DNA from: Stegostoma tigrinum
Lineage: Eukaryota
NCBI RefSeq assembly: GCF_030684315.1
Contig: NC_081378.1
Span: forward strand, 35,016,252-35,080,251
DNA: 64,000 nucleotides
Direction: 5' to 3'
Shown here: positions 1 through 64,000 of the stretch, piece by piece
Layout: every line of letters starts with the position of its first letter
Numbering within the stretch: the first letter of the stretch is position 1
Position numbers and translations under genes: made by a program
Notes under the pieces: model-generated
Seen by the model: the letters and a program-made list of their open reading frames with translations, nothing else
Told to the model about the DNA's origin: nothing
Database searches by the model: none

Positions 1-2169
1 CACATTCATTTTTTGTATTCCTCCTTATTTCCAAGGGCATAACTGTTGTCGAGTACTCCACTACCCCAATGTCCCTATAACACCTTTGTGTTAATGCATT
101 TTTCATAATATTCTCAAACTCAGTACTCAGATCCTTGATGTTTAGGTCACTTAACCGGCAGATGGAACCCCTGGCTAAGGCAAGTAAATCCTTCTTGCAC
201 ATATATTTCTTACTGCTAGTTTTCTTTGTTTGAGTATTTTTGGTTAGAGATTCAATTTTAGTGCTGCTGGCTCAAAGGTGGCTAAATCTTGAACCAGAAA
301 ACCCAAATCGATTTGTTAGCAAAAGCCATCTTGATACATGTAAATTAATAGGAAAAGAAATGTAAATGTTAAATGTGGTTCCAATTGTCCATAAGAAAGG
401 CAGGATCAAGCCAGATTTCAAAAAGAAAATCTAAAATATTTTGCTTTAGCACAGATCCAGCTTATAATTGCTTCAAAAATATCCTGAGAAAATGTGCATG
501 TCTTTGTGGAAAACTCTACTTACCAAAAAACAAGACAACCAACACTATAATTATAGTGAGAAATGCTCTATTCCAGTAAGAAGCAATTTTCTCCCATAAA
601 CGGAAATTGAAAACTTTTAACCACCTGAAACACAACCACAAATCAGAATTTAAATTTAAGATCATCACCAAAGGAACAAAAAAACATAATTAAAAATGTG
701 TTTGTTACATAGAATTTGCAGGATTGAAAGAAATCATTTAACGTAAAGGAACCACCTCCTACCATATCAGGACATCCACCTTTTTCCTTTATGTATTGAT
801 TTGGCCTTATCTTAAAAGTCATCTATGCCATTCGTTTCAATCAGTCTGTGTACCAGCAAGTTCCAAATTTAACCACTTTCTGTGAAAAGCGTGTCCTGAA
901 TTACGCATAAGATTCATTAATGACTATCTCATATTTTGTTAACTACGCATTCTAGATTCCTTAAAAAGGGATTTATGAAGTTGATTCTATCAACCTACTT
1001 CATAAATTTAAAAGGCCTTCATTGAGTTACCTTTCAACTCACCTCTTCCAGAGAATAGAGCTCATACTGTTAATTATTTATTGTGGGTTATTCAATTCTG
1101 TCATAATCATTGCAAATTATTTTTGCACCTTCTCAAGTGCTTTTATATTATTTCTTTAATTTGGAGACTGGGTCAGACTTGCCCGGACCAAAGCTTGGCT
1201 CAAAGGCATTAAATGGGCTTTAAAAATTGTGGGCAGAACCTGAGTCAGGGATTTCCTGTAAACAGCAGAAAAACAGCATTGTCAAAACTTAAGTCATTGG
1301 CTGCATTAGAATAGATTTTTTAACTGGACAAAATATTGCATGGTACTGTATAGTATTCAAAGACTTGTCCTGCTTGAAATTGGAGTTACTACGTGAAATG
1401 TGCCCTTTGTTTGTACTTTTTCCTCAAAAAAAGTTCAATCATGTGACTATTTCAAAGCTTGTCTCCAAGCTTCTGACTGTCTTCAAAAGGTTCTAACAGA
1501 TACCGTTCAGAGGAAAGTTGTTACATAGTTGTTCAAGAAATGTAAATTTGTTTGCATATTCCCAATAGATACTGCTCAGTAGGGGTTGTTTATACAATTG
1601 TCCAGTCTGCTTGTTTACCTTTACATGATTTATGAGCTTTTGCAGGGAATTAAGTGGCTGTTCAAGTACATTTTGATTATTTTGACAGATCTGACACCGA
1701 ATCACAATGAGATATCAGGACAGGTCACCAGCAACCTGGCCAAAGAGGTAGGTTGTAAGGAGTGTCTTAAAGGTAGAGAACAAAGAGCACATACGCAGCC
1801 ACAGATACAGGTGTGAACAGTGGTCGCATAAAAAGTCAGAAAGTGCATGAGATCATATTTGGAAGGACTCAGAAATCTCAATAGTTTTGAGGATAGGAGG
1901 AAGTTACAACTAAGGCGGAATTTAACATGTTGATAAAAATGTTAAATGAAAGCTTTGCTGGATCTTAAAACAACCCAGATCAGGGAACAGGGGTAACAGG
2001 TGAATTAACTAAGTGAAAGTTAGGAGATGTGTAGCAGAATTTGGATTAGATTGAGGTTACACAGGGTGGAAGATAGGTGGCCAGTTAGAACAGCATAAAA
2101 CAAATGAGAGATAACAAAAGCATTAATGAGAGTTCACCAGTAGGTGTGCTAAAGCAGTGACACAGTAGG

Positions 2170-2292
2170 TGAAGGGTCTAGGCCCGAAACGTCAGCTTTT
2201 GTGCTCCTGAGATGCTGCTTGGCCTGCTGTGTTCATCCAGCCTCACATTTTATTATCTTGGATTTTCCAGCATCTGCAGTTCCCATTATCTC
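2170..2292 (+). mobile_element. Short PLE 3'-terminal insertion
   Basis: Matches the family 3' end; TSD tgacacagtagg at 2158-2169 and 2293-2304. Confidence 0.88.
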
Positions 2293-3889
2293 TGACACAG
2301 TAGGGCAACTTTGTGAAGATCAAAGTAGGCAGCCTTGATGACGAAACTGTTGACTGGTTGCTTGTTCACATTACAGCAAATATAGCACCAAGTTGCAAAC
2401 ACATTGGTTAAACCTGTTGTTGGAAAGAGGGATAAAGCTGTTGCCAGATAGATGGCTACAGAATGGCATTTCTGGCAGTTATTATAGACAATTGTTTTAG
2501 TCCTCCCAAAATTAAGTATAAGGAATTTTCTACTCATTTAGAAGTAGATGTCAGATTTTGAGGTTGGTTGAGGTTATTATCTAAGAGCTAATGTTTCATC
2601 ATCTGTACCTGGCTCACTAATCAGTCTGACATCATCATAGGTATGGGCTAATCAAGATTCCATGACAGTAGATAATATGTCTGTACCATACACCACTGTG
2701 TTTGATGGGCAAATTTTACTTAGAAAGGCAGTAATAAAGAAAAGTTAATCCAACGCATTTCCTGGAAACTAAGTTCACAGCTGGAAATTGTTACAATTAT
2801 GAGAGTTAAGGGATTCTTATGTTTTGGTACTGTGTAATTTAGGATTGTAAAGAAAGGGAACCACATGACCATTTCTGAAGTCTGTCTGCCCATAGGCCTG
2901 GAGAGGGGCCTATTAAAGTTACAGGAAGACCCAGATTGTTTGCTGGGCAAACGAGTACAATGCTCACAAATGGCTATAATGGCAGCATAATCTATGTTTT
3001 ACACTAGTTAGAACGGTAGCCTCCAATGTCCAAGCAAGGTTAAGAATGACGAGTTGTAAACAACTATGTTTTATATTCTTTATTTAGTTTCAAGACTTTC
3101 AAGAATAGTGCAGCAGTATTTCTTTCTGGATACAAGGTCTACATGACTCATGGTACCATAGGGATAGGCTTTGAACAGACAAGAGTTTCTAATAAATCCC
3201 CAAACTCTCCGACACAGGCAGTCTGCCAGAACCTTGCAGAAAGAGCAACTAGACCTAGAAATTGTCTGTGGTTCACTGCAAAGGAATGCATTTGGGAGTT
3301 TGTACTTGGATTAATAGGACCACATTCATAAGGATTTAAACTGAGGCTGGAAGGTTTGTTTCGCTTGCGCTGAAGAGATAACCTCCCAGAAAATCCCTAC
3401 TATGAAGGTAACTTCTGTGGTTATAATTTACTAGGTTATAAAAGGAAATGAATGCAAGCAAACCCTTGGGAAAGAAGAATCACTTTAATCTAGCTGGGAG
3501 AACAGAATGTCCACTTAAAGTATGTGAATTCCATACATCTGCACTGGGTTCTTTTCAATTGTGATAACTGTAAAATTCAAATGTTCTATTCTATGGTTTA
3601 AAATGTTAACTTACCTCCATAAAAAATGGACTCAATAGTGCCTGTAGTCTGTTTGTCACAGTCGAAGACTTAACATGTGAATTCTTGATGATTCATTCTT
3701 TCAGCTCTTAATTAGAAGTGTTTTTAAAAACGTTTTTGGTTTCTAAGATCATGACTTTTGTCATATATTTATATGCCACAGCTCTAGTAATGTGGACAAC
3801 ATGTATGTGCATGAATTCTGATAATTCTGAACTAGAGAACAGATCCCACTTAGTTTAACATCATAATCAATTGTGTTTGGCAAACCTAC

Positions 3890-3981: not shown

Positions 3982-5879
3982 TTTACTTGATGACCTACCA
4001 GGAGAAACCACAATAGCATAATATATATTAGAATCAGTTCTTCATTTAAAGTATGACTTAATCATTGATGGCAATATCTATTTTCATTTTATTCCGAACT
4101 TGTTCATTGGATGACATGTTCAAACAGTTGCTGAGGACATTCAGTAGAGTGTATACCTCTGCCATGCGATGATACTACATTGACATAGCTATTTCGCGAC
4201 GCTTTTCCCTACCTGGTTAATGCTCTATAACAAAAATCTAAACAAATTGAGGGCTTTCATCAGAAAGGCTTCACAACAATCTACATCCAACTAGCTGCTC
4301 TGAAAACACTCTTCACATTTTGACATCCATGACAAATTTGCATCAGAGCACCTGAGACAATCCATAACATTCTAACATGATCAGCAACATTCTAAGAAGT
4401 GTCAATTGTTGGTATCTTGATCTCAATCTTCACCAAAAACTAATCAGATCTTCCTTGGGTTGGGTCCTGTATGTTTAGCAGGTGTCATTGAAACCTGTTC
4501 ATCAGCTTTTAACTTCACTTCTTCCAGACCGACAGGGGCAAAAATATTGCCATCTCCCACTTTCAGATAGTTTGTAGAAGTAATAAGGCTAAATCCTAAT
4601 GCAAAGGGTTAGGTGCAATTACTTAAAACATTTGCTATAGAATTGAGCCATTAGCTTAATCAAACAGAGATCTTCAGAGTTTTCAAAATGGCCTTTATTG
4701 CTTACTTCAGACAAGTTTTTAATGTTCTACTTGATTCTTCTCCCATTTTTCCTCTTCTCAGGACACCGTTCTAACACTCTTCTCCATTCTCCCTCAGACA
4801 GTTTTAAATCATGCTGTTTAGTTACTGTTATGACGTACCTCTGGAGCAGGTGAGACCTGAACCCAGGCCTCTGGATCAAAGAAAGGAACACGGCCACTGC
4901 ACCATATGGGCCCTTTCTTCTCCCTTACATGCTTGCTCTGCTTCTCTTGAAATGTATATCTTTTGCTTCAAGCACTGACCATTGTAGTAAAATTTGACAT
5001 TATTACACTGTTTCTTCTAAATTCCCTCTCAGATTTCTTAGTGACTATTTATACTGATAGGAAAGAGCATGACAAGGGACTATCAATATACCCTGATGTA
5101 CAAAGCCTAGTAGTACGTGCCCCCATGAAATAAAAATGAACCATATTGTGTCCCAATAAAATATCGCAGTTTAGCCCCACTCGGACATTTTAAATTTGCT
5201 TTATAACAGTAACAATTAGAATTGAAAATTCTAATAGTAGTAGTGATCAACTTGAGACAATTTTTCACATAGTACAGAAGCAATTTTAGACCACAGATTA
5301 ACTCCAGCTGAGTCCAGGGCTGACAGCCCAACTTACTACCTCTAGTTTTCTTTTTGCCCTGCTAAAGTGATGTTTTCGTGAGGCTATATTAAATAAATTC
5401 CAGGGATTATCCAAGTCTGCAGTTTAAAATCTGAGGCAATGACGTGAATAACCCAGAAGAACACAAGAGAAATTTTCTTCAAGCACCTTTTGATTAACAA
5501 AAAAATGTTAAAATGTTGGGAATGAGGATTAAAAAAGAACATATTTGCCTGGGCAAGGCAGTGGAAAGCAGCAAGTCACGTGACAAAATAATTAGGTACC
5601 ATTTGACATTTTAAATTAGCAAACATTCTTCAAGAAAAATTATCACGCCCCAACATGTCAGTGAGTAAATCTGGAATCATTATCAAAGATTGAATCCTTT
5701 AAACACAGAATCAGGTTTCTATCACTCACATAGCATTGAATTGGTCCAATAAAAGTCATGACCAATATTCTTGATGATGGTGCACTACCACACCCCCTGC
5801 ATCCCCCCCCCCCGCCCCGCCCAACCAACCTGCAGCCTTTCACACTACTCTCCTTAACTCAGTTGGCTGAATGGCTAAG

Positions 5880-6045
5880 ATGACAAGGTGTAGAGCTAGA
5901 TGAACACAGCAGGCCAAGCAGCATCATAATTTCTGAAGAAAGGTCTAGGCCCAAAACGTTAGCTTTCCTGCTCGGCCTGCTGTGTCAATCCAGCTCTACA
6001 CCTTATTATCTCAGATTTTTCAGGCTCTGCAGTTCCTACTATCTC
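5880..6045. mobile_element. Older miniature palindromic PLE derivative
   Basis: Diverged inverted arms; TSD tggctgaatggctaag at 5864-5879 and 6046-6061; decayed hammerhead at 5933-5960. Confidence 0.8.
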
Positions 6046-6389
6046 TGGCTGAATGGCTAAGTTTGGTATGCATAATGACACCAACAGTTTGGATATATTT
6101 CTGGATAAATTGTCTAACATTCTGCTAGGTAGTGGATTGATTGAAGCCATCATTTTTATCATTCTCGGTAAATTCTATCTTCTCCTCAGGCACTTTCTCA
6201 AGTTGAACCCAGTTGGTGCACGTTTAACAACGTATTAAGGCCCTTAGCTGACCTACTTTCTCCAGGACAAGTGCCATCAGCCTTCTGTTCAAGTATTGAC
6301 CTGGCTAGTCTCCATCTTTGTAAATGTCAGCTCTTCAAAACCGTTTCTCACATTCTATTGCACAAATTATCCTACTTGTCCACCATTTT

Positions 6390-9790: not shown

Positions 9791-10438
9791 AGTTCCCAAT
9801 CTTTAGGCAAAACCTTTGTTTTAAGAATGGCATTTAACAACATTAGTTAGGAATAATATCAGCACCAATGAATGTTTTTTTTAAGTAGAGAACAAATGCA
9901 GGTCCAAGCATTAGGAATTCAAAGTTGAGTAGAGGTTAGAGAAATTGGATTTTAAAAAATTGAAACAGACCTTGTAACTTTCATTAAGTTTACAAAATTT
10001 GACCCAAATTGTTCATGAATGAATAATTAGATAATAGGAAGCACAATTAAAAAACTCAACTGTGGAATAAACAGGGAAATTGGGTTACAAAACAATAAAA
10101 CTGTCAATTAGTTGTCAGATCGCACAACTGAAGCTGGGGAAAAAGAACTACTAGTCACATGGATGATTTTCTCAGGAAAAACGATCAATACAATCTGCAA
10201 GAGATATGATAGACTTGTCAATGAAAAGGCTAGATGGGTTCAACCAAAGCACAAGGTAAACATCATACTCTGGAGTTCTGTTTTATTGATGTCATATAGA
10301 CATTTTCAATAGTATTCATTTCAGCATTGTACATGTTTACACATTAATGGGTGGGGGGAGCCTGAGGGCAAGAGGCACGGAAACATGCGCAGACTAATTA
10401 TTATTCCAACTCAAGAGGCGAGGACTACCTAGCCCAAG

Positions 10439-10644
10439 ATAATAAAATGTGAGCCTGGATGAACACAGCAGGCCAAGCAGCATCTCAGGAGCACAAAAGC
10501 TGACGTTTCGGGCTGATGAAGGGTCTAGGCCCGAAACGTCAGCTTTTGTGCTCCTGAGATGCTGCTTGGCCTGCTGTGTTCATCCAGCCTCACATTTTAT
10601 TATCTTGGAATTCTCCAGCATCTGCAGTTCCCATTATCTCTGAC
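10439..10644. mobile_element. Miniature palindromic PLE derivative
   Basis: Near-perfect inverted arms of ~75 bp; TSD actacctagcccaag at 10424-10438 and 10645-10659. Confidence 0.9.
10513..10540 (+). ncRNA. Minimal hammerhead ribozyme motif (PLE-associated)
   Basis: CUGAUGA-A-GGGU(CUAG)GCCC-GAAA-CG-UC: intact core, 4-bp stem II, palindromic ACGU in place of stem III. Confidence 0.7.
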
Positions 10645-10959
10645 ACTACCTAGCCCAAGTCGGTTTTCCCCCTAAATTATTTACTTTTTAAAAAAATCCT
10701 CCTGTGGGCTCGCACCTCCAGCATAGCTGCACTAGAGATTCGAAGAGCACAGATTAAAAAAAAACTAGCAGAACTTCCGTGACTTTGCAGTTAGGTTTAC
10801 CATTCAGCCTCCCAAGAATAAGTCTTTACTAAATAAGGGCATAATTTGCATGGGAGGGGACAATTGACACTAACCATTCTCCTCGCACGCATGAAAATCA
10901 ACAACCACCAGGGAAGTGACAGTGAGCAAGACAGATCTCACGGCTTCAGGGCCTTAGAG

Positions 10960-11380: not shown

Positions 11381-11808
11381 GTTGTATAGGGCATTTCTCT
11401 CGACTGTACTGGTATTAACTATACCCTGAAAAAAATAAACCTTACAATGAAAAAATGGAATGAGCGTTCTCAAATGTTTGTCAATAATACCTTGTACCAG
11501 CAATTTTTTGGTCCATTTGTGTGCTATTGACATTGATCTGTATCAATTGACCATCAATAGTTGTTCTTCCAAAGTTGGTATTGAAATGTCATCCACAATG
11601 ATTGGAGAGACCAGCACAATAATTCAAAATACAACGTTGAAGCATTTATACAATTAATGGTTGTGTTGTAGAATAGAGGGGCCTTGGAGTGCAGGTACAT
11701 AGTTTTTTGAAGTTTGCGTCGCATCTCGGCAGCATGGTTAAAAAGGTAATGAAATGTGAGGCTGGATGAACACAGCAGGCCCAGCAGCATCTCAGGAGCA
11801 CAAAAGCT

Positions 11809-11836
11809 GACGTTTCGGGCCTAGACCCTTCATCAG
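11809..11836 (-). ncRNA. Minimal hammerhead ribozyme motif
   Basis: Reverse complement = ctgatgaagggtctaggcccgaaacgtc. Confidence 0.72.
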
Positions 11837-13610
11837 AGAGGGGGATGGGGTGAGGGTTCTTGAATAAATAGGGAGAGAGGGGGAGGCGGACCGAAGATGG
11901 GGAGAAAAGAAGATAGGTGGAGAGGAGAGTATAGGTGGGGAGGTAGGGAGGGGATAGGTCATTCCAGGGAAGACGGACAGGTCAAGGAGGTGGGATGAGG
12001 TTAGTAGTTAGGAGATGGAGGTGCGGCTTGGGGTGGGAGGAAGGGATGGGTGAGAGGAAGAACAGGTTAGGGAGACAGAGACAGGTTGGACTGGTTTTGG
12101 GATGCAGTGGGTGGAGGGGAAGAGCTGGGCTGGTTGTGTGGTGCAGTGGGGGGAGGGGACGAGCTGGGCTGGTTTTGGGATGCGGTGGGGGAAGGGCAGA
12201 TTTTGAAGCTGGTGAAGTCCACATTGATACCATTGGGCTGCAGGGTTCCCAAGCGGAATATGAGTTGCTGTTCCTGCAACCTTCGGGTGGCATCATTGTG
12301 GCACTGCAGGAGGCCCATGATGGACATGTCATCTAAAGAATGGGAGGGGGAGTCGAAATGGTTTGCAACTAGGAGGTGCAGTTGTTTATTGCGAACCGAG
12401 CAGAGGCGTTCTGCAAAGCGGTCCCCAAGCCTCCACTTGGTTTCCCCAATGTAGAGGAAGCCACACCAGGTACAGTGGATGCAGTATACCACATTGGCAG
12501 ATGTGCAGGTGAACCTCTGCTTAATGTGGAAAGTCATTTTGGGGCCTGGGATAGAGGTGAGGGAGGAGGTGTGGGGGCAAGTGTAGCATTTCCTGCGGTT
12601 GTAGGGGAAGGTGCCAGGTGTGGTGGGGTTGGAGGGCATTGTGGAGCGAACAAGGGAGTCATGGAGAGAGTGGTCTCTCCGGAAAGCAGACAGGGGTGGG
12701 GATTGAAAAATGTCTTGGGTGGTGGGGTCGGATTGTAGATGGCGGAAGTGTCGGAGGATGATGCGTTGTATCTGGAGGTTGGTGGGGTGCTGTGTGAGAA
12801 CGAGGGGAATCCTCTTTGGGTGGTTGTGGCAGAGGCGGGATGTGAGGGATGTGTTGCGGGAAATGTGGGAGACGCAGTCAAGGGTGTTCTCGACCACTGT
12901 GGGGGGAAAATTGCGGTCCTTGAAGAACTTGGACATCTGGGATGTGTGGGAGTGGAATGCCTCATTGTGGGAGCAGATGCGGCGGAGGCGGAGGAATTGG
13001 GAATAGGGGATGGAATTCTTGCAGGAGGGTGGGTGGGAGGAGGTGTATTCTAGGTAGCTGTGTGAGTTGGTGGGCTTGAAATGGACATCAGTTACAAGCT
13101 GGTTGCCTGAGATGGAGACTGAGAGGTCCAGGAAGTTGAGGGATGTGCTGGAGATGGCCCAGGTGAACTGAAGGTTGGTGTGGAAGGTGTTGGTGAAGTG
13201 GATGAACTGTTCGAGCTCCTCTGGGGAGCAAGAGGCGGCGCCGATACAGTCATCAATGTAACGGAGGAAGAGGTGAGGTTTGGGGCCTGTGTAGGTACGG
13301 AAGAGGGACTGTTCCACGTAACCTACAAAGATGCACCCACTGCATCCCAAAACCAGTCCAACCTGTCTCTGCCTCCCTAACCTGTTCTTCCTCTCACCCA
13401 TCCCTTCCTCCCACCCCAAGCCGCACCTCCATCTCCCACCTACTAACCTCATCCCACCTCCTTGACCTGTCCATCTTCCCTGGACTGACCTATCCCCTCC
13501 CTACCTCCCCACCTATACTCTCCTCTCTACCTATCTTCTTTTCTCTCCATCTTCGGTCCGCCTCCCCCTCTCTCCCTATTTATTCCAGAATCCTCACCCC
13601 ATCCCCCTCT

Positions 13611-13638
13611 CTGATGAGGGGTCTAGGCCTGAAACGTC
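13611..13638 (+). ncRNA. Minimal hammerhead ribozyme motif
   Basis: ctgatgaggggtctaggcctgaaacgtc. Confidence 0.65.
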
Positions 13639-13742
13639 AGCTTTTGTGCTCCTGAGATGCTGCTGGGCCTGCTGTGTTCATCCAGCCTCACATTTCATTG
13701 TCTTGGATTCTCCAGCATCTGCAGTTCCCATTATCACTGATA

Positions 13743-14395
13743 CATGGTTAAAAAGGTGATCGGCGTATTTGCCTTCATTGCTCAGTCCTTTGAGTATTGG
13801 AGTTCCGAAGTCATGTTGAGGTTTTTCAGGACACAGGTGAGGGTCTTCTGGAATACTGTATTCAGTTATCAGAAAGATATAATGAAGATGGAGAGAGTTC
13901 AGAAGACACTTACCAGGATGTTGCCAGGTACGGAAGGTGAGTTACAAAGGAGCCTTGGATAGGCATGTGTTGCTGTCCCCTCCCACGCAAATTATGCCCT
14001 TTTCACTGGAGTGTAGGAGGCGGAGGGGCAACCTGGTAGAAGTTTATAAAATAAATGGGAGGAATAGATAGAGCTAACGGTAGTTGCTTTTCCATGGGAT
14101 GGGGGGATTTCAAGACTAGGGAACACATTTCCAAGGTGACAGGAGAGAGATTTAAAAAAGAAATGAGGGGCAATTTTTTTTTAAAGAGGGCGGTTTGCAT
14201 GTGGAATAAACTTCCTGAGAAAGTAGTGAATGTGTGTAGAATTACAACATTTGAAATACATTTGGAGAGGTACATGAATAAGAAAGGTTTGGAGGGTTAC
14301 AGACTAGGAGCAGGCACGTGGGAATAGTTTAGTTTGGGATAATGTTCAGCATGGATCAGTTGGACTGAAGGGTCTTTTTCCATCCTGTCTGGCTC
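13743..14395 (+). mobile_element. CR1 LINE 3' fragment (5' part continues at ~11670-11747)
   Basis: Translates to CR1 ORF2 C-terminus-like peptides (MERVQKTLTRMLPG; FFLKRAVCMWNKLPEKVV). Confidence 0.8.
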
Positions 14396-37981: not shown

Positions 37982-38985
37982 TGGTATAATCATGCATTAT
38001 AAGTTGCTCCTAGATGGAGCAGGTGAAGAGTGCAAATAATTATGTGGCATCAGACCAGCCCTTGCTGAAGATTGCTGTAACCCTGAAGGAATCCACGTAT
38101 GATGGAAATGAGTACTTCTTATTTTGAATATTACTTATAGTGAGAAGTGTTGCATTTAATCTACGCCCACAATATCACTGTTTGCAAGAATTGTCCGTTT
38201 CTTCAAATAGCTGCTACTCAGTTGACATTGAGATTGCTAGATTGAGTTATTGTAGAAATCATTATGATTGACCTAGTGGATGGGAACTTTTACAAATTTT
38301 AAATACACTTCTTAAAAAATCTCTGCTATAATCACTATGTTTATTCCTAGTACTAATTATGAACATTAGAAATGTTCGCAAATACTTTTCCACGTTTGCT
38401 TTCATTTGATGTTTCGTCGTTGGTGTTTCCACCCAATGTTGACAAGGTCTGTTTGGGAAAGATGTATCATGGGAGTTCTTCTTGCTTCTGCCCAGAGTAT
38501 TGTATCTCAACAATTCATGTACTGACAGCCAAGTAGAACACTTAAATAAGGTCTTCCTGTTTAGAAGTACATCACCCTTCAGATGTTTTATAGTTTAGTT
38601 TTAAACGTTTTTGCTTCATATTTCAGGTGGACACTGGCAGTGGTTACCTGATATCCATCACCTATCACCACCATTCCGCCTCCACTCCTCTTCTCTCCCC
38701 CCCCCCCCTGCTGCCGTATGTTTCCACAATTTGTCTCTGCTCTCCTGGTTGAAATGGCAGTTTGTAGGTATGAAAGATCGAATTGACATAGACAGTGTAC
38801 AATATTAACTAAACAATGAAAAGTTATTGAAGAATCACATTGCACAAGGGCAGAATTCTGTGTTCACAATCTATGTATACTCGTTGTACTGGTACTCTGG
38901 CCTAAGTCAATGTTGATGCACATGTTTCCAATGTCATTTTAATTTTGATTTAATGAAATATTTATAAAAACTTAACCTTTTTCAG

Positions 38986-40475: not shown

Positions 40476-40625
40476 GGCTGGCTCGCAATTATTGCCCATC
40501 CCTAAGTGCCCTTGAGCAAGGCAGTCTTGAAACAATGCAGTCTGTGTGCTATCGGTTGATCCATAATACCCTTAGAGAGGGAATTCCAGGACTTTGATTC
40601 CTCATCCATCTTTGTCATTGCTTGA

Positions 40626-40791
40626 GAGATAATGGGAACTGGAGAATGCGACATAACAAAGTGTGAAGCTAGATGAACACAGCAGGCTAAGCAGCATCTT
40701 AGGAGCACAAAAGTCGAAGCCAGAAACGTTAGCTTTTGTGCTCCTAAGATGCTGCTTGGCCTGCTGTGTTCATCCAGCTTCACATTTTGTT
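40626..40791. mobile_element. Miniature palindromic PLE derivative
   Basis: Inverted arms; 18-bp TSD atctttg(t/a)cattgcttga at 40608-40625 and 40792-40809. Confidence 0.85.
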
Positions 40792-41633
40792 ATCTTTGAC
40801 ATTGCTTGACTAGTTTGTGAGACACCTCTCCCAATTTTGGCGCTAGCCCCCAGAAGCTATTACAGAGGGCTTTGCAGGGTCCATGTAACTGTTTCTGCTG
40901 TTGTCTTTTCTGGTGCTGAGGTCAATGCCAGATGGTCCATCTGGTATCATTACTTTGTGGAGACTTTATAGCAATTAATACAACTGAGTGGCATGCTAGG
41001 CCATTTCAGAAGGCAGTTGACAGTCAATCACATTGCTGTGTCTCTGGAGTTGCATGTAGGCCAGACCAGGTGAGGATGGCAGATCTCCTTCCCTGAAGGA
41101 CATTAGTGCGCCAGATAGGCTTTTCTTGAAATCAGCAGTGGTTTTATGGTAATCAGGTTCTTTTAAAAAAAAATCCAAATTACACCATCTACCATAGTGG
41201 CCCCCAGATCCCCAAAACATTAGCTGAATTTCTGGATCAATAATCTAGCGGTATTGCCACTAGATCATCACCTCCCCTATTTAGGGCACGTTGTAGAACA
41301 ACAATAGGCATCACCCAGAACTAAGTCTGTTTGTCTGTCTTTGATAGTGGGAGTGGCTAGAATCACAAGATTGGGTTTAAATCATTGGCTTTAATTTGAT
41401 TACCTTGTTTAACTTTGCTCTGTAAAGTCACTATTATTAAAAAACTGTTGTATCTTTATTTAAGCTATAAACCTGGTGTCTGGTATTGGTTATTTTCAAA
41501 GTCTCTGGTACTAGTTATTACAAAGCTCTGGGTAGTAAATTTTTAAAGGCCATTAGGTATTTTAATTTTACTGCACCGCAAATACAGGGATAGGGAGAGT
41601 CATTTGATTTGGTGGTCTGTCTCTGTGTTGTAA

Positions 41634-41765: not shown

Positions 41766-44752
41766 TGAAAAATCAAACACCCTCTCAGTTCAAAATTTCC
41801 AACATTTAGAGCAGGTCCAAGCCGTGAAATCATGAATGTTTGCAGTTTGCCAATTATGAACAGTTTTCAATATTCACAACATAAACACACAAAAAGTATA
41901 TGAAAACAAGTGCAAACCACTTGTGCAATGGAGGTCTTCTTATTTAATATGCATAGTGGCAAAGAAACAATTATGTTGCTGAGATGGAATGCTTTCATGG
42001 CTTTCTCATGGGGCAAAGGGTGCCTTTTTTTTAGTGTCATGAAACTTGGATAAAGATATCAATTTCATGAAAGCTGTGAACTGCTGGTCAGATGGATGGT
42101 TGATGGTGGTAGATTACAAGGAAGCTTCTGATATTGAGGATCTAGAAGTTGAGGAGAGAGGAAGACTGATTTGGTGGCTTGGGAGATTGGTGTTCAGGAG
42201 GCAAAGAGAATGGTTTCTCATTTCTTTTTACCTTTCTTAGACTGTTGGACCTGAACATCCTCACATAATAAATGTTGGAACAAAACCATATTAACATCCT
42301 TAGCTATAGATGACACCACCATAGTAAGATTAATTTTTTTTTAACATTTACTTGTGAGATGTGGGTGTTACTGGCTGGATCAGTGTTTATTGTTGATCTG
42401 AACTTGCCCTTGAGAAGGTGGAAAGTGAGCTGCCTACTTGAATCATGGCAGTCCATATGCTATAGGTAGATCCACAACACTGTTGTTGGGGCAATTCCAG
42501 CGCACTGAAAGAGCAATGTATATTTCCAAGTCAGAGTGGGTTGGAGGAGAACTTGAAGATGATGGTGTTCCCATGTGCCTGCTCTCCTTTTCCTTCTAAA
42601 TTGTTGTGGTTTTGGCCATAGGAGATGCTGGCTAAGAATCTTTGACTTTCTGTAGTGCATCTTCTGGATAGTACACATGCCGCTTTGCAACTTCTCATGT
42701 TATCTGGGGATGGTCACTGTGAAGGTCAAACCACCATCAGTCATCTCTCTCAGCCTGGTAAGACTATGACAACTTTTTTTTAGAGCCTCTAGAATGTCAT
42801 TGGATCTGTAACTATCCAGGCAACTGGGGAGTATTCCATTACACCCCTGACTTATGCCTTGTGGATGGTGGACAGGTTTGGGAAATCAGGAGGTAAGTTA
42901 CTCACTGCAGTATTCCTACCTCTGATCTGCTCTTCTACAAACCTGTGTTTAATGGCCATTCCAGTTCAGATTCTGATCAATGGTAACCCTAAGGATGTTG
43001 ATAGTGGCAGATTCAGTGATGGTAATGCCATTGAATGTTAAGGTACTGGTGAAATAGTCATTGCCTAGTATTTGTGTGGCGCATATATGATTTATCACTT
43101 GTTAGTCCAAGCCTGGACGTTATCCAGATCTTGTTGCATTAGGACACAGACAGTTTAAGTATTTGAGGAGTTGCGAAAGGTGTTGAACATGATGCAATCA
43201 TTGGTGAACGTCCCCACATCTGACCTTATGGAAGGAAGATCATTGAAGTAGCTGAAGATGGCTGGGCCTAGGACAGAATCCTGTAGAAATGTCCTGGGAG
43301 ATGAAATGATTGACTTCTAATAATCTTAACTGTCTTCTCATGTACGAGGTATGATTCCAACCAGTGGAGAGTTCACCCCAATTCCTGTTGACTCCTGACT
43401 TTGCTAGAGCTCCTTGATGTCACATTTTGTCAAATCTAGCCTTGATGTCAAGTGCAATCACTCTCTCATTTCACCACCTGTGAAATTCAGCTCTTTTGGA
43501 CTGGTTTCAACCAAGGTTGTAATGAAGTTAGGAACTGACTGGTCATGGTAGAACCCAGTTTTGGTGTCAGTAAGCAGATTATTGCTGAGCAGTGATAGCA
43601 TTGTTTATGACATTTCCTATCACCTTTTCTGATAATTGACTAGACCGATGGGGCCATAATTGGGCATGTTGATTAGTCCTGCATTTTGTCTACATGACAA
43701 ATTCTGAACAATTTTCCAAGTTGTCAGGTAGATGCCAATGTTGTAGCTGTTCTTGAACAGTTTGGCCTGGGGGTATAGTAGGTTTTGGTGCATGTCTTCA
43801 ATACTATTGCAGGAATTTCATCATAGCTTTTGCAGTATCCAGTGTCTCCAACCACTTCTTGACATTATATGGAGTGAATCAAATTGGCTAAAGACTGGCA
43901 TCCATGTGATGATTGGGACCCAAGTCTTGAGTTGCTAGATCTGTTCAAAATCTAAAACAGTCAGCTCCACAGAACGTGATTAAAGATATAATGAATGTGA
44001 AGGCAGGACGTTGTCACCATGAGGATTCTGCAGTGGTCGCTCTTAAGGATACTGACATCCACAGATGCATCTGTGGCAGGCAAATAGGTGAAGATGAAGT
44101 CAAATATGTAATTCCCTTTTTCTTCATTTCCTCACTACCTGTTGCAGACCCAGTCTAGCCGCAGTGTCCTGTAGTACTACACTGGATGGATCAATGGTAC
44201 TGCTGCAGAATCATTCTTGGTGGTGAACATTTGACATTCCCCACCCAGAGAACATTCTTTGTCGTTGGCACCCTTAGTGCTTCCTTCAAGTGTGGCTGCA
44301 CGTGGAGTATTGATTTATCAGCTGAGGGAGGGTAGTATGTGACAATCAGCAGGGGGTTTCTTTGCCCATGTTTGCCTTATTACCATGAGATTTTATGGTG
44401 TCTGTTTACCAATGTTGAGGACTCCTAGGACAACTCAGTCCTCACTGTTCCACTCTGCTGCTGGTTCTGCTGAGGCAGGACACCTCCAAGGATGGTGATG
44501 GGACATTGTGAGATATGATTCTAACTGGGTCAGGCTGCTTCTTGATTAGCCTGTGAGAAAACTCTGACAATTTTGACACTAGCCCTCAGATTTTTATAAA
44601 GAGAATTTTGTGGCGCCCTTTTTGTCCTTATTGTATCTAATGCCTACGTCAGCGTCCGATGGTCTGTCCGTTTTTAATTTCTTTCCTCCTTCCTAGCATC
44701 GGATACAACTGAATGGTTTACTAGGCTGTTTCAGTGAGCAATTAAGAGTCAA

Positions 44753-44892
44753 AGATAACAAAGTGTGGAGCTGGATGAACACAGGAGGCCAAGTAGCATC
44801 CCAGGAGCACAAAAGCTGACGTAAGGTTTCAACCGGCTCCACACTTTGTTATTCTTGGATTCTCCAGCATCTGCAGTTCCCATTATCACTGA
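44753..44892. mobile_element. Miniature palindromic PLE derivative nested in a SINE/LINE tail
   Basis: TSD agcaatt(a/c)agagtcaa at 44737-44752 and 44893-44908. Confidence 0.85.
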
Positions 44893-45069
44893 AGCAATTC
44901 AGAGTCAACAGCATTGCTGTGGGCCTGGAATTACGCATTGGCCAGATTACCTAAGGATAGCTGTTTCCTTCCTTAAAGCCCATTAAATTATCCAACTGGG
45001 TCTTTCTGATAAGAGTCCGATGGTCATCATTAGACTGTTAATTCCAGAACCCAGGCAATGTTCTTGGGA

Positions 45070-45158
45070 GATAATGGGAACTGCAGATGCTGGAGATTCC
45101 AAGATAATAAAATGTGAGGCTGGATGAACACAGCAGGCCAAGCAGCATCTCAGGAGCA
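45070..45158 (-). mobile_element. Short PLE 3'-terminal insertion
   Basis: Reverse complement of the family terminus; TSD caatgttcttggga at 45056-45069 and 45159-45172. Confidence 0.88.
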
Positions 45159-46471
45159 CAATGTTCTTGGGACCTATGTCTCTGGATTAATAATCTAGCA
45201 GTAATGCCACTAGGGCATTGCACATTCAAAGGTGTTGCCCCATATTGTAAAGGCTGCATAATTTTCTTTCCTTTGTTTGGGACTATGAACTAAAACCATA
45301 AATTTTGACCAGGTGATCATTGGTTATGGGCAGGAGAAACATCTAGTTGCAAAGTGAAGGTGTAGGATATCATTCACTGTGTTGGCCTCTTTCTGTGAAA
45401 GTCCCAGAAAATCTCGAGTGATGGCCCCCCACTCTCTTCTTTCTCTGAAATTTCCTTGTTGAAAGGAGAAAAGAAACCTTGCTCTGAAAGGGGAATATTC
45501 TTAACCAGTGAACAACATACAACATTGGCGTGCAAACAACCTCATCTCATTGAAGACCTAAAAGGAACTGAAACAAAACCACTCATCAAATCCTGTGGGG
45601 CAATTGAACTGTTTGCCTTTTTTGCATCTTTTTCCTAACATTCATGTCTCATCTGCCTTTCTGTCTGTGAAGGTAGGGATTTAAGAAATAGTTTCATTTA
45701 AGTGGTGAAGTTTTGTTTGCCGTTCATATTCACAAATGAGACCATGAGCAGTTATTTTCTAAAGTACAGAGAACCAGTGACTGACAAACTCAGGTTAAAA
45801 GAAAGCAGTCAGCTAAACTGGGTTCTTGGATATTCTGACTAAAATTTTTTCACATTTTGTAATGGCTTTGGCAATATTTGGGCTTGATTTCCACTGCATT
45901 ACCCCAACTGGTCATGACGATGTAATATTAAGTTAAAAGTTATGTATTCGAACATTGTGATCAAATCTGCAGGCATGCCTCTAACTAAAGTTCCTGCTTT
46001 TTTCTGTACATGATGTTATTGCTACTGATGTTCTGAAACGCTCCTGAGTGTGGTGGCAACAATACATACCATTCTCCTCCCCATCTTTTGCTGGGATCTG
46101 CTTGGCACTCTAGCCCTAAGGCAGACACCTTATCTTGCACAGGTTGCCGAAGTAGCAGATCCCAGGGCTTAGGATGTCCCTTTGTCTAAAGAAAAGAATC
46201 TTGGAATGACAACAGAAGTAGGGAACCTAGTAATCCAAAAAATGAGCTGACAACGTACTCAGCAGGTCTCTAAAATCAGGCATGATTCCAGGTGGGTGTG
46301 AAAAAACACAAGGGTCACTTCAGTCTTGCATCACATTGAACAATGCAATATTTTGAAGGGTTTAATCATTTACTTCTGTTACTGTGTCTAAAAGAACTTA
46401 AAACAATGTTTTAGGAAAATTAAAATCTTTGTTTGTATGCTGTTAAATAAGTTGATTGTCATGTATTTTAG

Positions 46472-47950: not shown

Positions 47951-49585
47951 GTATACTATTTTGATGTACAGCTGTACATCAGTAATGCACATTAGATAGC
48001 TCACTTTATGCTTTTTCTTCCACAGAAGCTGCCAGACTCACTGAGTTTTTCCAGCAATTTCTGTTGTCGTTTCAGATTTGCAGCATCAACAGTCCTTTGT
48101 TTATCCAAAAGAAATCTGTTAGTTATACTAAAAGCTGCAGGTTTCAGGGTGCATACTCAAAAGTGGATTTGATACTTGGTGATGGGTAGAAAATATTAAG
48201 TACTCATTGGATGAATTACACTGAGTAACCAGGAGGACTGAGTGGGCTCTGGTAAATTAGAAATTTAACGTGGGAAGACAGCTTAGTTGCAATGTCACTG
48301 GGCTGGTAATTCAACTGTCATGCTCTGGGGACATAGATTTAAATCCCAGCTGCTGAATTTCAAATTCATTTAATATATCTGGAGTATAAAACTGGAGTCT
48401 GCAACGGTCATGATTATATTATCGTGGATAGTCATAATAACTGTATGGTTCGCTAATGTCCTTTTTAAGGAAGGTAATTTGCTATTCTTGCCTGGTCTGG
48501 CCTACCTGTAATTCCAGACTCAGTAATCTGGTTGAACAGCAGTAGGTTATAGCTCATGGTGTAAAAGGGTCAGTAGAAACAGATTCTAGATTGGCTGAGG
48601 AATAGGAAATAGTGTGGTTAATGAGTATTTTTGAGGTTTAAAAGTTTATAGTGGGTTTCCATACAGGTCAATATTGGGAGTTTTTTTTTCCGATGTGTTC
48701 TAGATATTGGAGTTCGGAACGGTTTCAAAATCTACAAATGTTGACAACATTTGGAGACATAATTATCTGTGAGGATAATGTAAAAAGCATAGAAATATTA
48801 AAAGTAGAGCAGGAATAGTAGATCTTCGAAAGAACATTGACAAGTTAGTGAAGTGGGTGGACAGGTGTTGGATGAAGTTCACTTGACACTTAAGCACAAT
48901 GTTCATTGTCATAGGAATGAGTGGAAGCTATAAAATACAGTGTAATAGTCAAAAGAGGGTGCAGGAGCAGAGAGACCTGCAAGTGTCTGCATAAACCTTT
49001 TTAAAGGTGACAGGACGGGAAAGAGTGGTTCATGTACAGATTACAAAAATTTATTCATAGCAGCATAAATATAAGAGCGGGGATGTTTTGTTAAACCTGT
49101 GTACAATACTAAATTGCAAGTTAAATTTTAACTGGGGTGTTATGTAACATACTCAGTGCTACACTTCAATGCATTAGAGAGAGTATAGAAGAGATTTACA
49201 AGGATGGTTCTGCTTTGAGAATCATCTGTTATATGAAACTAGATTGGAAAAATTGGGATTGAGGGGTTGGCTGCTTAGGATCCAGTGGCAACAGAGTGCT
49301 GGGGATTGGCTGCAGAGTGCAGAATGTCTGGAGAGTTACATTATCTCGGTGCGTAAAGTTAGGATCTGGGGATCATATATGGTCTGGTGGTAGTATAGCT
49401 GGGGATGTGTGAGGCAGATATAGTGACAGTCTAATAGTTACTCAGGAGTTAGACTATGCACATAATTTATTAAATACAACTCCAATCTATTTGCATCAAG
49501 AAATATGGGTGGAAGTAGGATGTTCCAGCCTGCCTCACCACTTTATGTGATCATGGCTGATCTACCCAGGTCTCATCTACTCTCT

Positions 49586-50174
49586 GTGATAATGGGAACT
49601 TCTTTAGATTCTTTAGAAATTCTTTAGATGACATGTCCATCATGGGCCTCCTGCGGTGCCACAATGATGCCACCCGAAGGTTGCAGGAACAGCAACTCAT
49701 ATTCCGCTTGGGAACCCTGCAGCCCAATGGTATCAATGTGGACTTCACCAGCTTCAAAATCTCCCCTTCCCCCACTGCATCCCAAAACCAGCCCAGTTCA
49801 TCCTCTCCCCCCACTGCATCCCAAAACCAGTCCAGCCTGTCTCTGCCTCCCTAACCTGTTCTTCGTCTCACCCGTCCCTTCCTCCTGCCCCAAGTTGCAC
49901 CTCTATCTCCTACCTACTAACCTCATCCCACCTCCTTGACCTGTCCATCTCCCCTGGACTGACCTATCCCCTCCCTACCTCCCCACCTATACTCTCCTCT
50001 CAACCTATCTTCTTTTCTCTCCATCTTCGGTCCGCCTCCCTCCCTCTCCCTATTTATTCCAGAACTCTCACCCCATCCCCCACTCTGATGAAGGATCTAG
50101 GCCCGAAACGTCAGCTTTTGTGCTCCTGAGATGCTGCTGGGCCTGCTGTGTTCATCCAGCCTCACATTTTATTA
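49586..50174 (+). mobile_element. PLE 3' fragment with a 15-nt inverted terminal stub
   Basis: Encodes the GIY-YIG C-terminus (RRLQEQQLIFRLGTLQPNGIN); TSD tctcatctactctct at 49571-49585 and 50175-50189. Confidence 0.9.
50085..50112 (+). ncRNA. Minimal hammerhead ribozyme motif (sense to COG5 pre-mRNA)
   Basis: ctgatgaaggatctaggcccgaaacgtc; one stem II mismatch. Confidence 0.6.
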
Positions 50175-50189
50175 TCTCATCTACTCTCT

Positions 50190-60560: not shown

Positions 60561-60940
60561 TGTGAACTCTATTCCACCTCGGGAGCCTACAGCCCAGTGG
60601 CCTAAATGAGGATTTTACTAGTTTCAAAATCTCCCCATCCCTAGCCTTGTCCCTGCCTCCTTGACCTGACACAACCTGCCCATCATCTCTTCCCACCTCA
60701 CTGACCAATCCTCACACTGCCTACGTGCAGTCACTTATCACCATCCAGCCTACCTTCCCCAGCCCCACCCCTTCTCTCTTTTATTTCTGAGCTCCCCTCC
60801 CCGTCCCCATTTCTGCAGAAGGGTACTCATCTGAAACGTCAACTTTCCTGCTCCTCCAGGGCTGCCTGGCCTGCTGTGTTCCTACAGCTCCACACTGTGT
60901 TATCTCTGACTCCAACATCTGCAGTTCTTGCTATCTCAGT
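60560..60940 (+). mobile_element. Older Neptune-like PLE 3' fragment
   Basis: Diverged similarity to the young family's 3' end; decayed hammerhead ctgcagaagggtactcatctgaaacgtc near 60813-60840. Boundaries approximate. Confidence 0.6.
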
Positions 60941-61048
60941 CTGTGTGGATACTTGTTTAGTGAAAACTAGGCCTTTCCAGGATAGTAGATGTTTGAGAAT
61001 ACAATGATATTATTTTAAGAATCAAGAAAAACATGCTCAGAAAGCAGT

Positions 61049-61694
61049 CACGAATCATTTCAACCCCCCACCCCCACCCCCACGCCTCCCATTCTTTAGA
61101 TGACATGTCCATCATGGGCCTCCTGTGGTGCCACAGTGATGCCACCCGAAGGTTGCAGGAACAGCAAATCATATTCCGCTTGGGAACCCTGCAGCCCAAT
61201 GGTTTCAATGTGGACTTCACCAGCTTCAAAATCTCCCCTTCCCCCACCGCATCCCAAAACCAGCCCAGTTCGTCCCCTCCCCCCACTGCATCACAGAACC
61301 AGCCCAACTCTTTCCCCCCCCCCCCCCACCCACTGCATCCCAAAGCTAGTCCAACCTGTCTCTGCCTCCCTAACCTGTTCTTCCTCTCACCCATCCCTTC
61401 CTCCCACCCCAAGCCCCACTTGCATTTCCTACCTACTAACCTCATCCCACCTCCTTGACCTGTCCATCTTCCCTGGACTGACCTATCCCCTCCCTACCTC
61501 CCCACCTATACTCTCCTCTCCACCTATCTTCTTTTCTCTCCATCTTCGGTCCACTTCCCCATCTCTCCCTATTTATTCCAGAACCCTCACCCCATCCCCC
61601 TCTCTGGTGAAGGGTCTAGGCCTGAAATGTCAGCTTTTGTGGTCCTGAGATGCTGCTTGGCCTGCTGTGTTCATCCAGCTTCACACTTTATTAT
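61049..61694 (+). mobile_element. PLE 3' fragment (same family)
   Basis: GIY-YIG C-terminus plus 3' UTR; TSD ctcagaaagcagt at 61036-61048 and 61695-61707; degenerate hammerhead at 61604-61631. Confidence 0.88.
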
Positions 61695-64000
61695 CTCAGA
61701 AAGCAGTAGACCTGATTTAAAGATTTTGGGCTGAAGCAACTGTCTTTTTATAGGATGAAATCTAAGCTACGTGTCCTAACATAATAGTTTAAAATATTTG
61801 AAAAAATCTGCAGTGGAATGGCCATTATCACCTCCAAATTTCAGTTATTCAAATTATGACTAGTAGTTGATTTAATATAAAAATATGAATAAATGAAAGC
61901 TAATGAACCTCTGGTTCCACATAAGCCACAGCTCACAGGAAGATTTGTTTCCAAGATTAAATTTCCAAGACTCCATTGTATTTAAATTGGCACAAGACGA
62001 CGGCTGTAAGTTAGCAACAATAGTTTTTTTCTGCCACCCCCCCCTCCCCCACCCCCCGCCTTAACTACGGCATATTTCATTAAAAACACATTAATTTACA
62101 AGCATCATCTGTGACATCACGTTTTACTGGTTTCTGGTCTGCTATGTTATCCATTTGCCTCATAGAGACTAGAAGCAGGAGTTCGCCATTTTGCCCTTTC
62201 AGCCTGCTCTGCCATTCAGCATGATCCGACTGATAATCTCATCTCGACGCCAGTTTCTCACATTCTTCCCATGCATTTAGATGCCTTTTAAATCTAAAAA
62301 GACTATTTCTTCATTTGAATATATTTAGTAACTTGGCATCTGCAGCCTTCTATGATAGACAATTCAACAAGTTCACTACTGTTTGAATGAAGAAAGATTT
62401 CCTCGTTTTAATCCTAAATAGTCAATTCCCAACTAAAGGAAACATCTGTCCTTCATTTAGTCTGTATACCTTTTTTTAAAAAAAAAATTATACGTTTTAT
62501 TCTTCTGTCTGATTCTTTCAACCTCTGGTGAATACAGACGCTTCCAGTACTGACCTTGCCTGGCAAATATGCCCTCTTACACTAGTGAGCCAATCAGCAG
62601 CAACTGTGGGGAGAATTGGCCTGTGAATGGAAGTGTAGTTCCTGTCAAAGGTTGTTAGTTCCATGCATGGTACCAACTTTTTTTCCATTTGGCTGTTCTT
62701 TCATTCACTTTTGCTGGAATCACCTTGTGGGGGTGATATTGCTATCTGGCGCCATGAATTTGAATGCTGAGAGAGAGAACTAAGTCACTAAGACTAGACT
62801 GCAGAGCTTAAAAAGTTGAATGATCCTGCGAGGATGAAGAGATTTTAAAAGAGTTAAAGTCTTGGTGTGCAAGTAGTAGATTAAATTTGCAGGAGTTTGA
62901 AAGTAAACCAAAAAAAATTCAAGGCCATTTGTGAGGGTTTGGAGATAATCACTGATAGGAAAAAGTGAAGACTTTCATTGTAGACTTGAGTTCGAGCTTG
63001 TGAAGGGGTTTGGCAAGGAGACTGACGAGGGATCAGAATTGAACTTGAGATGGTGATGGCATGAACTCAGGGTTTCCAGAGTAGAAAGGATTCGAATGTA
63101 TTTTCTGCATAAAGCATGGAAATGTTTGTACATTTTCCTGATTATTATTAAATCTTAAGTACTTTTAATTTCTGAGTAACAAGATCAAGGTGGGGGTGCA
63201 GAACTGTATTTGGAACAATATTGGTAGAAACCATGGATTGCAGCATGCTGTAAGGTCATTTGACTCATCTTATACAGCTAAGAAGCCCTTTGAAACAGCT
63301 GTTCAATTAATTTCATTCATCTACTCTTCTTCCATAAGAACTAGGAACCGGAGTAGGCCATTCGGCCCTTCGAGCCTGTTCCGCCATTCAATAAGATCAT
63401 GGCTGATCTTTTCATGGACTCAGAACCACTTATCCGTGTTCTCACCGTAGCCCTCCACAGCCTCCAGTGCCCTGCTGAAGTTTTCCCTTTTCAAGGATGT
63501 TTATTCAAATTAATTTTATAACTTATTAAATCTGAATTGTGTTAGATTGCAATCCTGATTGATTATTTTTCTCTTTAGCCATGTTCCTTTATGTGGCCTC
63601 TAGTTGTCTTCCAATCATTGTGACAAAATATACATGTTATTGCTTTCTTCCTCTAACCTGTGCATCACCCAGACATGTAAGTTGGACAAGGTCAGGTACA
63701 GTTTGGACTAGCATTAAACAGTTATCCATTCAGTAGTTACAAAGGTTTTTCTTAATAAAGGCAGGGAAAATATGTGAAAAGAAGATTCTTTTAAAAAAAT
63801 GACTTTATTATGAAAATGAAATTGGACCCGACCTGTTTGTTCGAAATTTGAGTTCTGTCACCTCTACAGGCTCTTCATTCTGCCTGAGATGCGAGACAAA
63901 GAAGTGGATGGTAGTGGCAATCCTCTCCATTCCTTTGGCTCCTGGATTGTTAACTTTAGCCTTTCCCTGTCTGCTACCAGCAACATGTGTGAATTTAATT

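Follow-up and report, generated by a model that had tools for sequence, protein, structure and literature searches.

Two terminal windows and their pairing in Penelope-like element insertions of a Stegostoma tigrinum locus

A 64,000-nt stretch of the Stegostoma tigrinum genome (NC_081378.1, positions 35,016,252 to 35,080,251; hereafter the window) carries 11 insertions of a single Penelope-like element (PLE) family. These raise the question of how one element comes to have two alternative 3' termini and, in most copies, two arms in opposite orientations. An earlier note on this DNA, made from the sequence alone, proposed that each end of the cut target primes reverse transcription at its own site in the element RNA and that the two cDNAs are joined head to head. 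When the window was compared with itself and scanned with one genuine copy of the terminal region, the 11 insertions were recovered, seven of them two-armed (head to head, with the 3' ends outward) and four one-armed. The insertions that the note had listed, each bounded by a direct repeat (12-18 bp in ten and 8 bp in one), were all found where it had placed them (Table 1). We conclude, with a probability of roughly 0.72, that the copies are ordinary 5'-truncated insertions of an endonuclease-bearing PLE made via two-site twin priming.

Two terminal windows, one of each per two-armed copy

Ends were placed in a family numbering in which position 1 is the first base of the hammerhead core; the left end of the copy at 5880 was set to position 91 from the alignment. 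Nine proximal 3' ends fall at 88-93 and nine distal 3' ends at 125-132, with none at 94-124. A rescan of the window with a profile hidden Markov model (profile HMM; 23 hits, against 1 weak hit in 5 shuffles) found no overlooked copy with an intermediate end. The two termini that the note described are real, but they are windows 6 and 8 nt wide rather than fixed points. Its distance of about 33 nt holds from motif to motif and not from end to end, since the end-to-end tails in the seven two-armed copies measure 36, 40, 43, 37, 38, 37, and 37 nt.

The two sites were also said to be equivalent ATTATCT signals, which we could not uphold. Measured from the last base of the motif, proximal ends lie at -5 to 0 and distal ends at -1 to +6 (p = 0.0013), the distal motif reads ATTATCA in several copies, and the two sites differ in predicted structure. 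Because of the differing offsets and the absence of the motif at the distal site of a related family, ATTATCT was rejected as a universal signal.

Each of the seven two-armed copies pairs one distal with one proximal end, both pointing outward. The probability of this is 0.008 if the choice is independent, 0.016 if the 18 labels are permuted, and 0.037 if seven ends of each type are held fixed. One-armed copies are divided between distal ends (2170 and 45070) and proximal ends (37913 and 61049). As the note had it, arm length does not depend on end type (Mann-Whitney p = 1.0). The word "young" that it applied to the family suits part of the set only, as sister arms in the two-armed copies are just 89-99% identical.

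The same pairing was seen in other PLE families. A scan of prokaryotic genome contigs gave seven loci (L001-L007) with relatives at 46-49% amino acid identity; their contigs, from two metagenome-assembled genomes (MAGs), are likely animal DNA present as eukaryotic contamination. Scoring was possible for L002, the first insertion of L003, and L006, while L001 is missing its 3' end, L004 and L005 are cut off by the contig edge, the left end of the second L003 insertion is unresolved, and L007 has a single arm. All three two-armed insertions scored in this distant family are distal plus proximal. Their target-site duplications (TSDs) measure 13 bp in L002, 17 bp in L003, and 15 bp, with two mismatches, in L006, and their outer junctions overlap by 0-6 nt. 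The distal arm of L002 consists of the tail only. In the L002-L006 family the proximal site lies about 90 nt after the hammerhead start and retains ATTATCTTG, whereas the distal site lacks the proximal motif and lies 57-58 nt further on. Within the window, four older two-armed copies from three other PLE families (8885-9790, 16709-16831, 35943-36545, and 50490-50625) have the tail on one arm only in 4/4 cases, and a TSD is recognisable only at 16709. Mixed pairs come to 10/10 when the MAG-contig family is added (p = 0.001) and 14/14 with the older copies.

TSDs of the 11 main-family insertions have a median length of 15 bp, and three of them contain one mismatch. As a chance control, the longest exact repeat between two random 40-nt windows was recorded in 2000 trials; it reached at least 12 bp in 1/2000 and at least 8 bp in 59/2000. 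Since random windows seldom match at this length, ten TSDs are secure, and the 8-bp TSD of the copy at 37913 rests on its placement at both edges of the element. A search for a target consensus at the 22 nicks gave only a weak excess of T 6-8 nt beyond the nick, which is unconvincing after multiple testing. The TSDs have 39% GC compared with 41% for the window, and none of the 11 sites is a microsatellite. The tendency of the Neptune clade to insert into microsatellites or AT-rich DNA is thus not seen at these 11 sites.

How the arms may have formed

Under two-site twin priming, the GIY-YIG endonuclease would nick both target strands about 15 nt apart, a stagger suggested by TSD length, to leave 3' overhangs. 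Each target 3' end would pair over 0-6 nt with sense RNA and prime reverse transcription from a start window inside it. Of the two ends, one would use the distal window and the other the proximal, an assignment taken from the genomic copies. The two sites are predicted to be non-equivalent: a stem-closed loop, roughly 90 nt past the start of the hammerhead, would hold the proximal site, and the distal site would lie 3' of the stem. The simplest reason for the use of one site each would be that a dimer sits on a single RNA and each protomer occupies its own site; alternatively, two RNAs may sit in an asymmetric complex. Both cDNAs would be antisense and would stop at variable points. Their 3' ends might then be united by end-joining, through overlaps of 1-2 nt or short fillers, some of them templated. 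If each cDNA templates the second strand of the other, the resulting insert would be head to head and would carry the tail on a single end. A second target end that failed to prime on RNA might capture the cDNA end, which would give one-armed copies of either type.

This reading is favored because of microhomology at the outer junctions, arms that do not nest, donor variants shared by sister arms, distinct inner junctions, and recurrence in other families. It is the best fit to the tests described here and agrees with published biochemistry on another PLE (PMC11167929), which supports this part of the earlier proposal; the stagger of about 15 nt is less direct, as it is deduced from the TSDs.

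When the start of the TSD was compared with the continuation of the template, microhomology summed to 37 nt over the 15/18 ends that could be scored and was present at both end types. The null expectation, which permits chance overlap in both directions, was 10.9 +/- 3.8 nt, and 0/20000 simulations were as high. Ends were scored if at least 4 nt of the template continuation was known, which left out the distal ends of 10439 (1/1 known base matches), 11748 (continuation unknown), and 44753 (0). Proximal ends overlap more than distal ends (3.0 vs 1.5 nt; n = 12 and 10 including the MAG loci; p = 0.024), a comparison made post hoc.

Sister arms share 18 minority alleles where the mean is 6.8, the top of 720 permutations (6 overlapping pairs), and some of these alleles are private to 5880, 11748, or 31283. 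The sharing therefore indicates one donor locus, with one RNA molecule and two being indistinguishable on this evidence. The inner junctions of the seven two-armed copies are all different: three have overlaps of 1-2 nt, two have short fillers, and two have repetitive fillers. They must therefore come from independent events, and they are of the kind that end-joining is expected to give. The fillers at 49601-49618 and 32926-32942, and the sequence at 61049-61085, consist of repeated short copies of adjacent sequence at inner or 5' junctions; presumably they are akin to the templated insertions of polymerase theta.

The alternative that fares best is that the ends are cuts. Here the endonuclease would make a staggered cut within the element in resolving a DNA or DNA/RNA intermediate, and end-joining to the target would follow (PMC8557442). 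Such a cut would naturally yield one end of each type, and the joining of a cut intermediate can produce microhomology. It is harder to square with ends at different offsets on the two motifs, or with the L002-L006 family, in which the distal site lacks the motif and is 57-58 nt away. PMC11167929 cites a Drosophila virilis endonuclease that needs the tail to recognise element DNA and reports that ATT, a triplet found in both shark motifs, is preferred; the same paper, however, maps the initiation of reverse transcription on RNA in vitro to exactly these two positions. Arms with no overlap, as at 49586 and L002, are also hard to derive from one cleaved duplex. We consider cutting unlikely.

A second alternative is fold-back or self-priming, in which one strand (the cDNA, or an antisense transcript according to PMC3846280) turns at a palindrome and copies itself. 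This would produce the head-to-head geometry and variants common to sister arms, and palindromes have been reported at inner junctions in Adineta (PMC3846280). In the window, 44753 stops at a palindromic ACGT and 31283 at an imperfect palindrome. A copied arm must nest in its template arm, and fold-back therefore fails in 4/7 copies, where the shorter arm has a tail that the longer arm is without. Neither arm is consistently the longer one, since 5' reach is greater for the proximal arm in 4/7 copies and for the distal arm in 3/7. The arms of 49586 and those of L002 share no sequence at all, inner overlaps in the window do not exceed 1-2 nt, and microhomology is found at both outer ends. Fold-back is already contradicted by these non-nested arms unless secondary deletion is frequent, and we hold it to be very improbable.

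Each target end might instead pick a site at random on one of two independent RNAs, with mixed pairs arising by luck. PMC11167929 found no strand preference for the start site in vitro, two templates are the simplest source of overlapping arms, and the one-armed copies are split 2:2. The luck would have to extend over the whole run of mixed pairs (7/7, 10/10, and 14/14), and the literature also describes the tail as often present at one end only (PMC8557442). We find random choice hard to credit. Amplification from a two-armed master that arose once or a few times, which would account for fixed pairing and for variants common to the arms, can be dismissed, as it is already contradicted by seven inner junctions that differ in position and type and by the same pattern in unrelated families.

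Several observations weigh against two-site twin priming. The sample is small, with window-only p values of 0.008-0.037, and end-joining of a DNA intermediate could be another source of microhomology. Both arms copy the same stretch of RNA in 6/7 two-armed copies; this departs from classical L1 twin priming in that it calls for either strand displacement or an additional template. Subfamily age and later gene conversion confound the evidence from shared alleles. Three of the four older two-armed cases lack a secure TSD. Finally, the predicted RNA stem described below shows 0 compensatory pairs among 11 shark sequences (89% paired), and folding z-scores in the main family are not significant (0.2-0.7).

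We also considered a broader form of two-site twin priming, as the built-in standard way in which PLEs integrate. One RNA would carry two structurally different sites, a protein dimer would set one reverse transcriptase (RT) on each, every nicked target end would go to its own site, the trailing RT would displace the first cDNA, and the two cDNAs would prime each other's second strand. If true, it would account for the inverted pseudo-long terminal repeat (pLTR), for the tail on one side, and for how the second strand is made in the different PLE clades. It is a tentative extension, and we are somewhat more inclined to doubt it than to accept it.

The element, its RNA, and its neighbors

A reading-frame remnant in the copy at 11748 is 5'-truncated; in it, the RT is represented by its C-terminal half, followed by a linker and then by a GIY-YIG endonuclease (Table 1). 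The remnant aligns over its full length with 499 proteins, and the YIDD and GIY-YIG motifs are seen in the protein alignment; the nearest named proteins are from Stegostoma tigrinum (89%) and Rhincodon typus (84%). Pfam gave no significant match with the window protein fragments alone, and a full-length relative, P0077, matches RVT_1 (E 1e-6) and GIY-YIG (E 5e-7). Among the CCHH residues, C283, C286, and H327 are invariant in the alignment and H305 and H321 nearly so. The copy at 11748 has lost one CCHH histidine and has an altered first linker cysteine, and the CX4CxxC linker is present in the copy at 31283 and in relatives. A zinc-finger-like CX2-5CxxC linker between RT and endonuclease defines the Neptune and Nematis clades (PMC8557442). 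By this definition, and judged from sequence, the element is a Neptune/Nematis-type endonuclease-bearing (EN+) PLE. The DKG motif is found in longer relatives and in the 775-amino acid RT-endonuclease open reading frame (ORF) of L001, while the window copies begin downstream of it. A search of solved structures with P0077 gave 4 matches, all with E > 0.09 and none a PLE structure. No match to the 3' arm was found in a phage collection, and a tRNA scan of the window found none.

The terminal region appears to open with a minimal hammerhead ribozyme, called by motif. The putative core matches published minimal PLE hammerheads (PMC4209133), and an Rfam scan gave 0 hits at the gathering score. Hammerhead cleavage was examined as the source of short arms and rejected: the predicted cut is at 29, and 10/18 5' ends lie at 0-46 with none at 29. 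Seven 5' ends lie upstream of the predicted cut, and uncut RNA therefore templated those arms.

Arm stops show some clustering. In or beside the hammerhead, 10/18 arms stop. The longest arms of two shark copies and of L002 (13335, 32925, and L002:2848) all end no more than about 30 nt from where the RT GVAMG motif is encoded, and a 45-nt span of the endonuclease region takes in the stops of the arms at 32943, 49619, and 61049. These clusters are possible RT pause sites.

In minimum free energy (MFE) folds, a predicted long-range stem closes around the proximal site and leaves the distal site 3' of it. Pair probabilities for this stem are 0.99 in L005, L003, and L006, 0.68 in L007, 1.0 and 0.77 in two older shark families, and 0.38-0.90 in three copies of the main family; two other old copies fold otherwise. 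RNAalifold on the shark copies picked another, weak structure. When L005 is compared with L007, two compensatory changes are seen, but only if the helix is read in the register given by folding; they are absent from the MAFFT alignments, where L007 is shifted. Taken together, the folds are suggestive of a long-range stem around the proximal site in PLE RNA, a prediction weakly supported in the main family. Just 5' of the distal site, a hairpin at L005:2113-2128 and L007:1359-1378 is conserved between the two families with two compensatory pair changes, and no clear counterpart of it was identified in the shark family.

Copies of other PLE families also lie in the window. In the second shark PLE family, the copies at 16709 and 50490 are two-armed with the tail on the left arm only; the first has a decayed TSD of about 17 bp and one arm of the second is almost tail-only. 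A one-armed distal copy of this family with a perfect 15-bp TSD (36119-36133 / 36491-36505) is nested in a copy of a third family. That copy, at 35943-36545, is two-armed, distal on the left and proximal on the right, and is broken by the second family. The head-to-head copies at 8885-9790 (tail on the right arm only) and 22640-23305 (right end lost) are probably Poseidon-type, as judged by eye. On the MAG contigs, a different PLE family is represented by one two-armed insertion, L002:203-2261, which has a TSD of 10 bp and arms that differ by only about 14 nt at their 3' ends. The window also contains other old dispersed repeats (6380-6683, 13997-14380, 15602-16043, 19699-19863, 27124-27374, and their partners; 66-85% identical) that are SINE- or LINE-like (short or long interspersed nuclear elements) by appearance.

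Table 1. Features of the window, with positions counted from its first nucleotide; arm strands are given in brackets.
Feature	Position	Strand	TSD	Arms and remarks
One-armed insertion	2158..2304	+	2158-2169 / 2293-2304 (12 bp)	arm 2170-2292, distal end
Two-armed insertion, older subfamily	5864..6061		5864-5879 / 6046-6061 (16 bp)	proximal 5880-5925 (-); filler of at most 6 nt; distal 5932-6045 (+)
Two-armed insertion	10424..10659		10424-10438 / 10645-10659 (15 bp)	proximal 10439-10513 (-); distal 10513-10644 (+); inner-junction overlap 1 nt
Two-armed insertion	11733..13757		11733-11747 / 13743-13757 (15 bp)	proximal 11748-13335 (-, 1.6 kb); distal 13334-13742 (+); overlap 2 nt
Two-armed insertion	31270..33563		31270-31282 / 33551-33563 (13 bp, 1 mismatch)	distal 31283-32925 (-, 1.6 kb); repetitive filler 17 nt; proximal 32943-33550 (+)
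One-armed insertion	37905..37989	+	37905-37912 / 37982-37989 (8 bp)	arm 37913-37981, proximal end
Two-armed insertion	40608..40809		40608-40625 / 40792-40809 (18 bp, 1 mismatch)	distal 40626-40713 (-, tail with 9-nt deletion); proximal 40713-40791 (+)
Two-armed insertion	44737..44908		44737-44752 / 44893-44908 (16 bp, 1 mismatch)	proximal 44753-44822 (-); filler 5 nt; distal 44828-44892 (+)
One-armed insertion	45056..45172	-	45056-45069 / 45159-45172 (14 bp)	arm 45070-45158, distal end
Two-armed insertion, arms without overlap	49571..50189		49571-49585 / 50175-50189 (15 bp)	distal 49586-49600 (-, 15 nt); 18-nt filler made of repeats of the 5' end of the proximal arm; proximal 49619-50174 (+)
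One-armed insertion	61036..61707	+	61036-61048 / 61695-61707 (13 bp)	arm 61049-61694, proximal end
Twelfth, older diverged copy, sister subfamily	60565..60940	+	none secure	distal end; from the profile-HMM rescan
5'-truncated ORF remnant	12172..13362	-		RT C-terminal half (YIDD), CX4CxxC-type linker, GIY-YIG endonuclease with CCHH
Second ORF remnant	31724-32924	-		broken into frames
Predicted minimal type I hammerhead core, example copy	10513..10540	+		CUGAUGA box, short stem II, GAAA box, palindromic ACGU loop; by motif
Predicted long-range stem	10557..10623	+		10557-10564 pairs with 10616-10623; loop contains proximal site; MFE folding
Proximal ATTATCT motif, example copy	10599..10605	+		proximal ends at family positions 88-93
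PLE tail, example copy	10606..10644	+		distal motif 10633-10639; distal ends at family positions 125-132
Second shark PLE family	16692-16846, 50490-50625, 36119-36505
Third PLE family, old copies	35943-36545, 17881-17990, 48006-48102, 18670-18790			related to the main family
Another PLE, two head-to-head copies	8885-9790, 22640-23305			GIY-YIG remnants

Comparison with known systems

Most of this anatomy has been described before. Two termini, a one-sided tail, inverted arms, and TSDs are hallmarks of PLEs, and the mapping of two RT start sites dates from 2024. The termini of the shark copies are the known PLE tail with its pair of start sites for the RT; neither the element nor its termini are new. 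As far as we found, what is new is the joining of published pieces: both nicks prime, one per site, and the cDNAs meet head to head. Our literature search, with older papers on PLE structure beyond its reach, found no statement of strict distal plus proximal pairing or of twin priming for PLEs.

In its domains the shark element resembles Neptune and Nematis PLEs, with an RT, a CX4CxxC linker, and, at the C terminus, a GIY-YIG endonuclease with CCHH. Its insertions resemble those of canonical PLEs in the inverted 5'-truncated copy at the 5' end, the tail of 30-40 bp that is often one-sided, the TSD, and the strong 5' truncation (PMC8557442, PMC3846280, PMC2377424), as well as in the hammerhead within the terminal repeat. 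An Adineta PLE combines an inverted pLTR with a TSD of 9 bp and carries a tail of 31 bp on just one of its inverted repeats, for which self-priming on an antisense template was proposed (PMC3846280), and Drosophila virilis Penelope has a repeat of 34-37 bp (PMC2377424). In these papers the tail is called optional and ascribed to endonuclease resolution, and the inversion is ascribed to self-priming (PMC8557442, PMC3846280). There are differences too. TSDs are 8-10 bp in Adineta (PMC3846280) compared with a median of 15 in the shark family, the tail of the L002-L006 family is 57-58 nt long, and neither a partial tandem with direct pLTRs nor a full-length copy is present in the 64-kb window.

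The closest biochemical parallel is PAc, the Poseidon element of Anolis carolinensis (Frangieh et al. 2024, PMC11167929). Purified PAc cuts and extends both target strands from sense RNA in vitro, reverse transcription begins within the RNA at two sites between which the tail lies, and AlphaFold2 predicts a dimer. The paper found no strand difference in start site and left later steps unvalidated. As in the shark family, the two start sites of PAc lie downstream of the hammerhead and bound the genomic tail, within a start window of about 8 nt. By eye, a 6-bp stem could also form in the RNA given in its Methods, enclosing the upstream site and leaving the downstream one 3' of the stem. PAc belongs to another clade. 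Penelope/Poseidon elements are expected to be without the linker zinc finger, so the shark element, because its linker is present, would work like PAc yet lie outside that clade. The PAc sites are AC-rich whereas the shark sites carry ATTATCT, and the AT-rich target preference of PAc is absent at the shark sites. An intact N-terminal region matching the dimer interface reported for PAc was found in neither the window nor L001. As far as the available text of PMC11167929 goes, it gives no target-template homology, TSD length, or pairing of sites within an insertion.

Twin and dual priming have been described for L1 (PMC2837659). In L1 twin priming, as proposed here, both target 3' ends prime, two inverted fragments lie within one TSD, and microhomology is found at the outer junctions with little at the inner one. 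Unlike L1, the shark PLE does without poly(A) priming, and both of its sites are fixed windows whereas the internal position in L1 is variable. Shark arms overlap in 6/7 copies while L1 fragments flank a deletion, and the two-armed form is the majority outcome in the shark PLE (7/11). The origin of the inverted arms and the one-sided tail of PLEs is stated to be open (PMC8557442, PMC11167929). If each target end primes at its own RNA site, this would be a concrete answer that can be tested in the existing in vitro system, and it would mean that a telomerase-related RT solves second-strand synthesis differently from L1 and R2.

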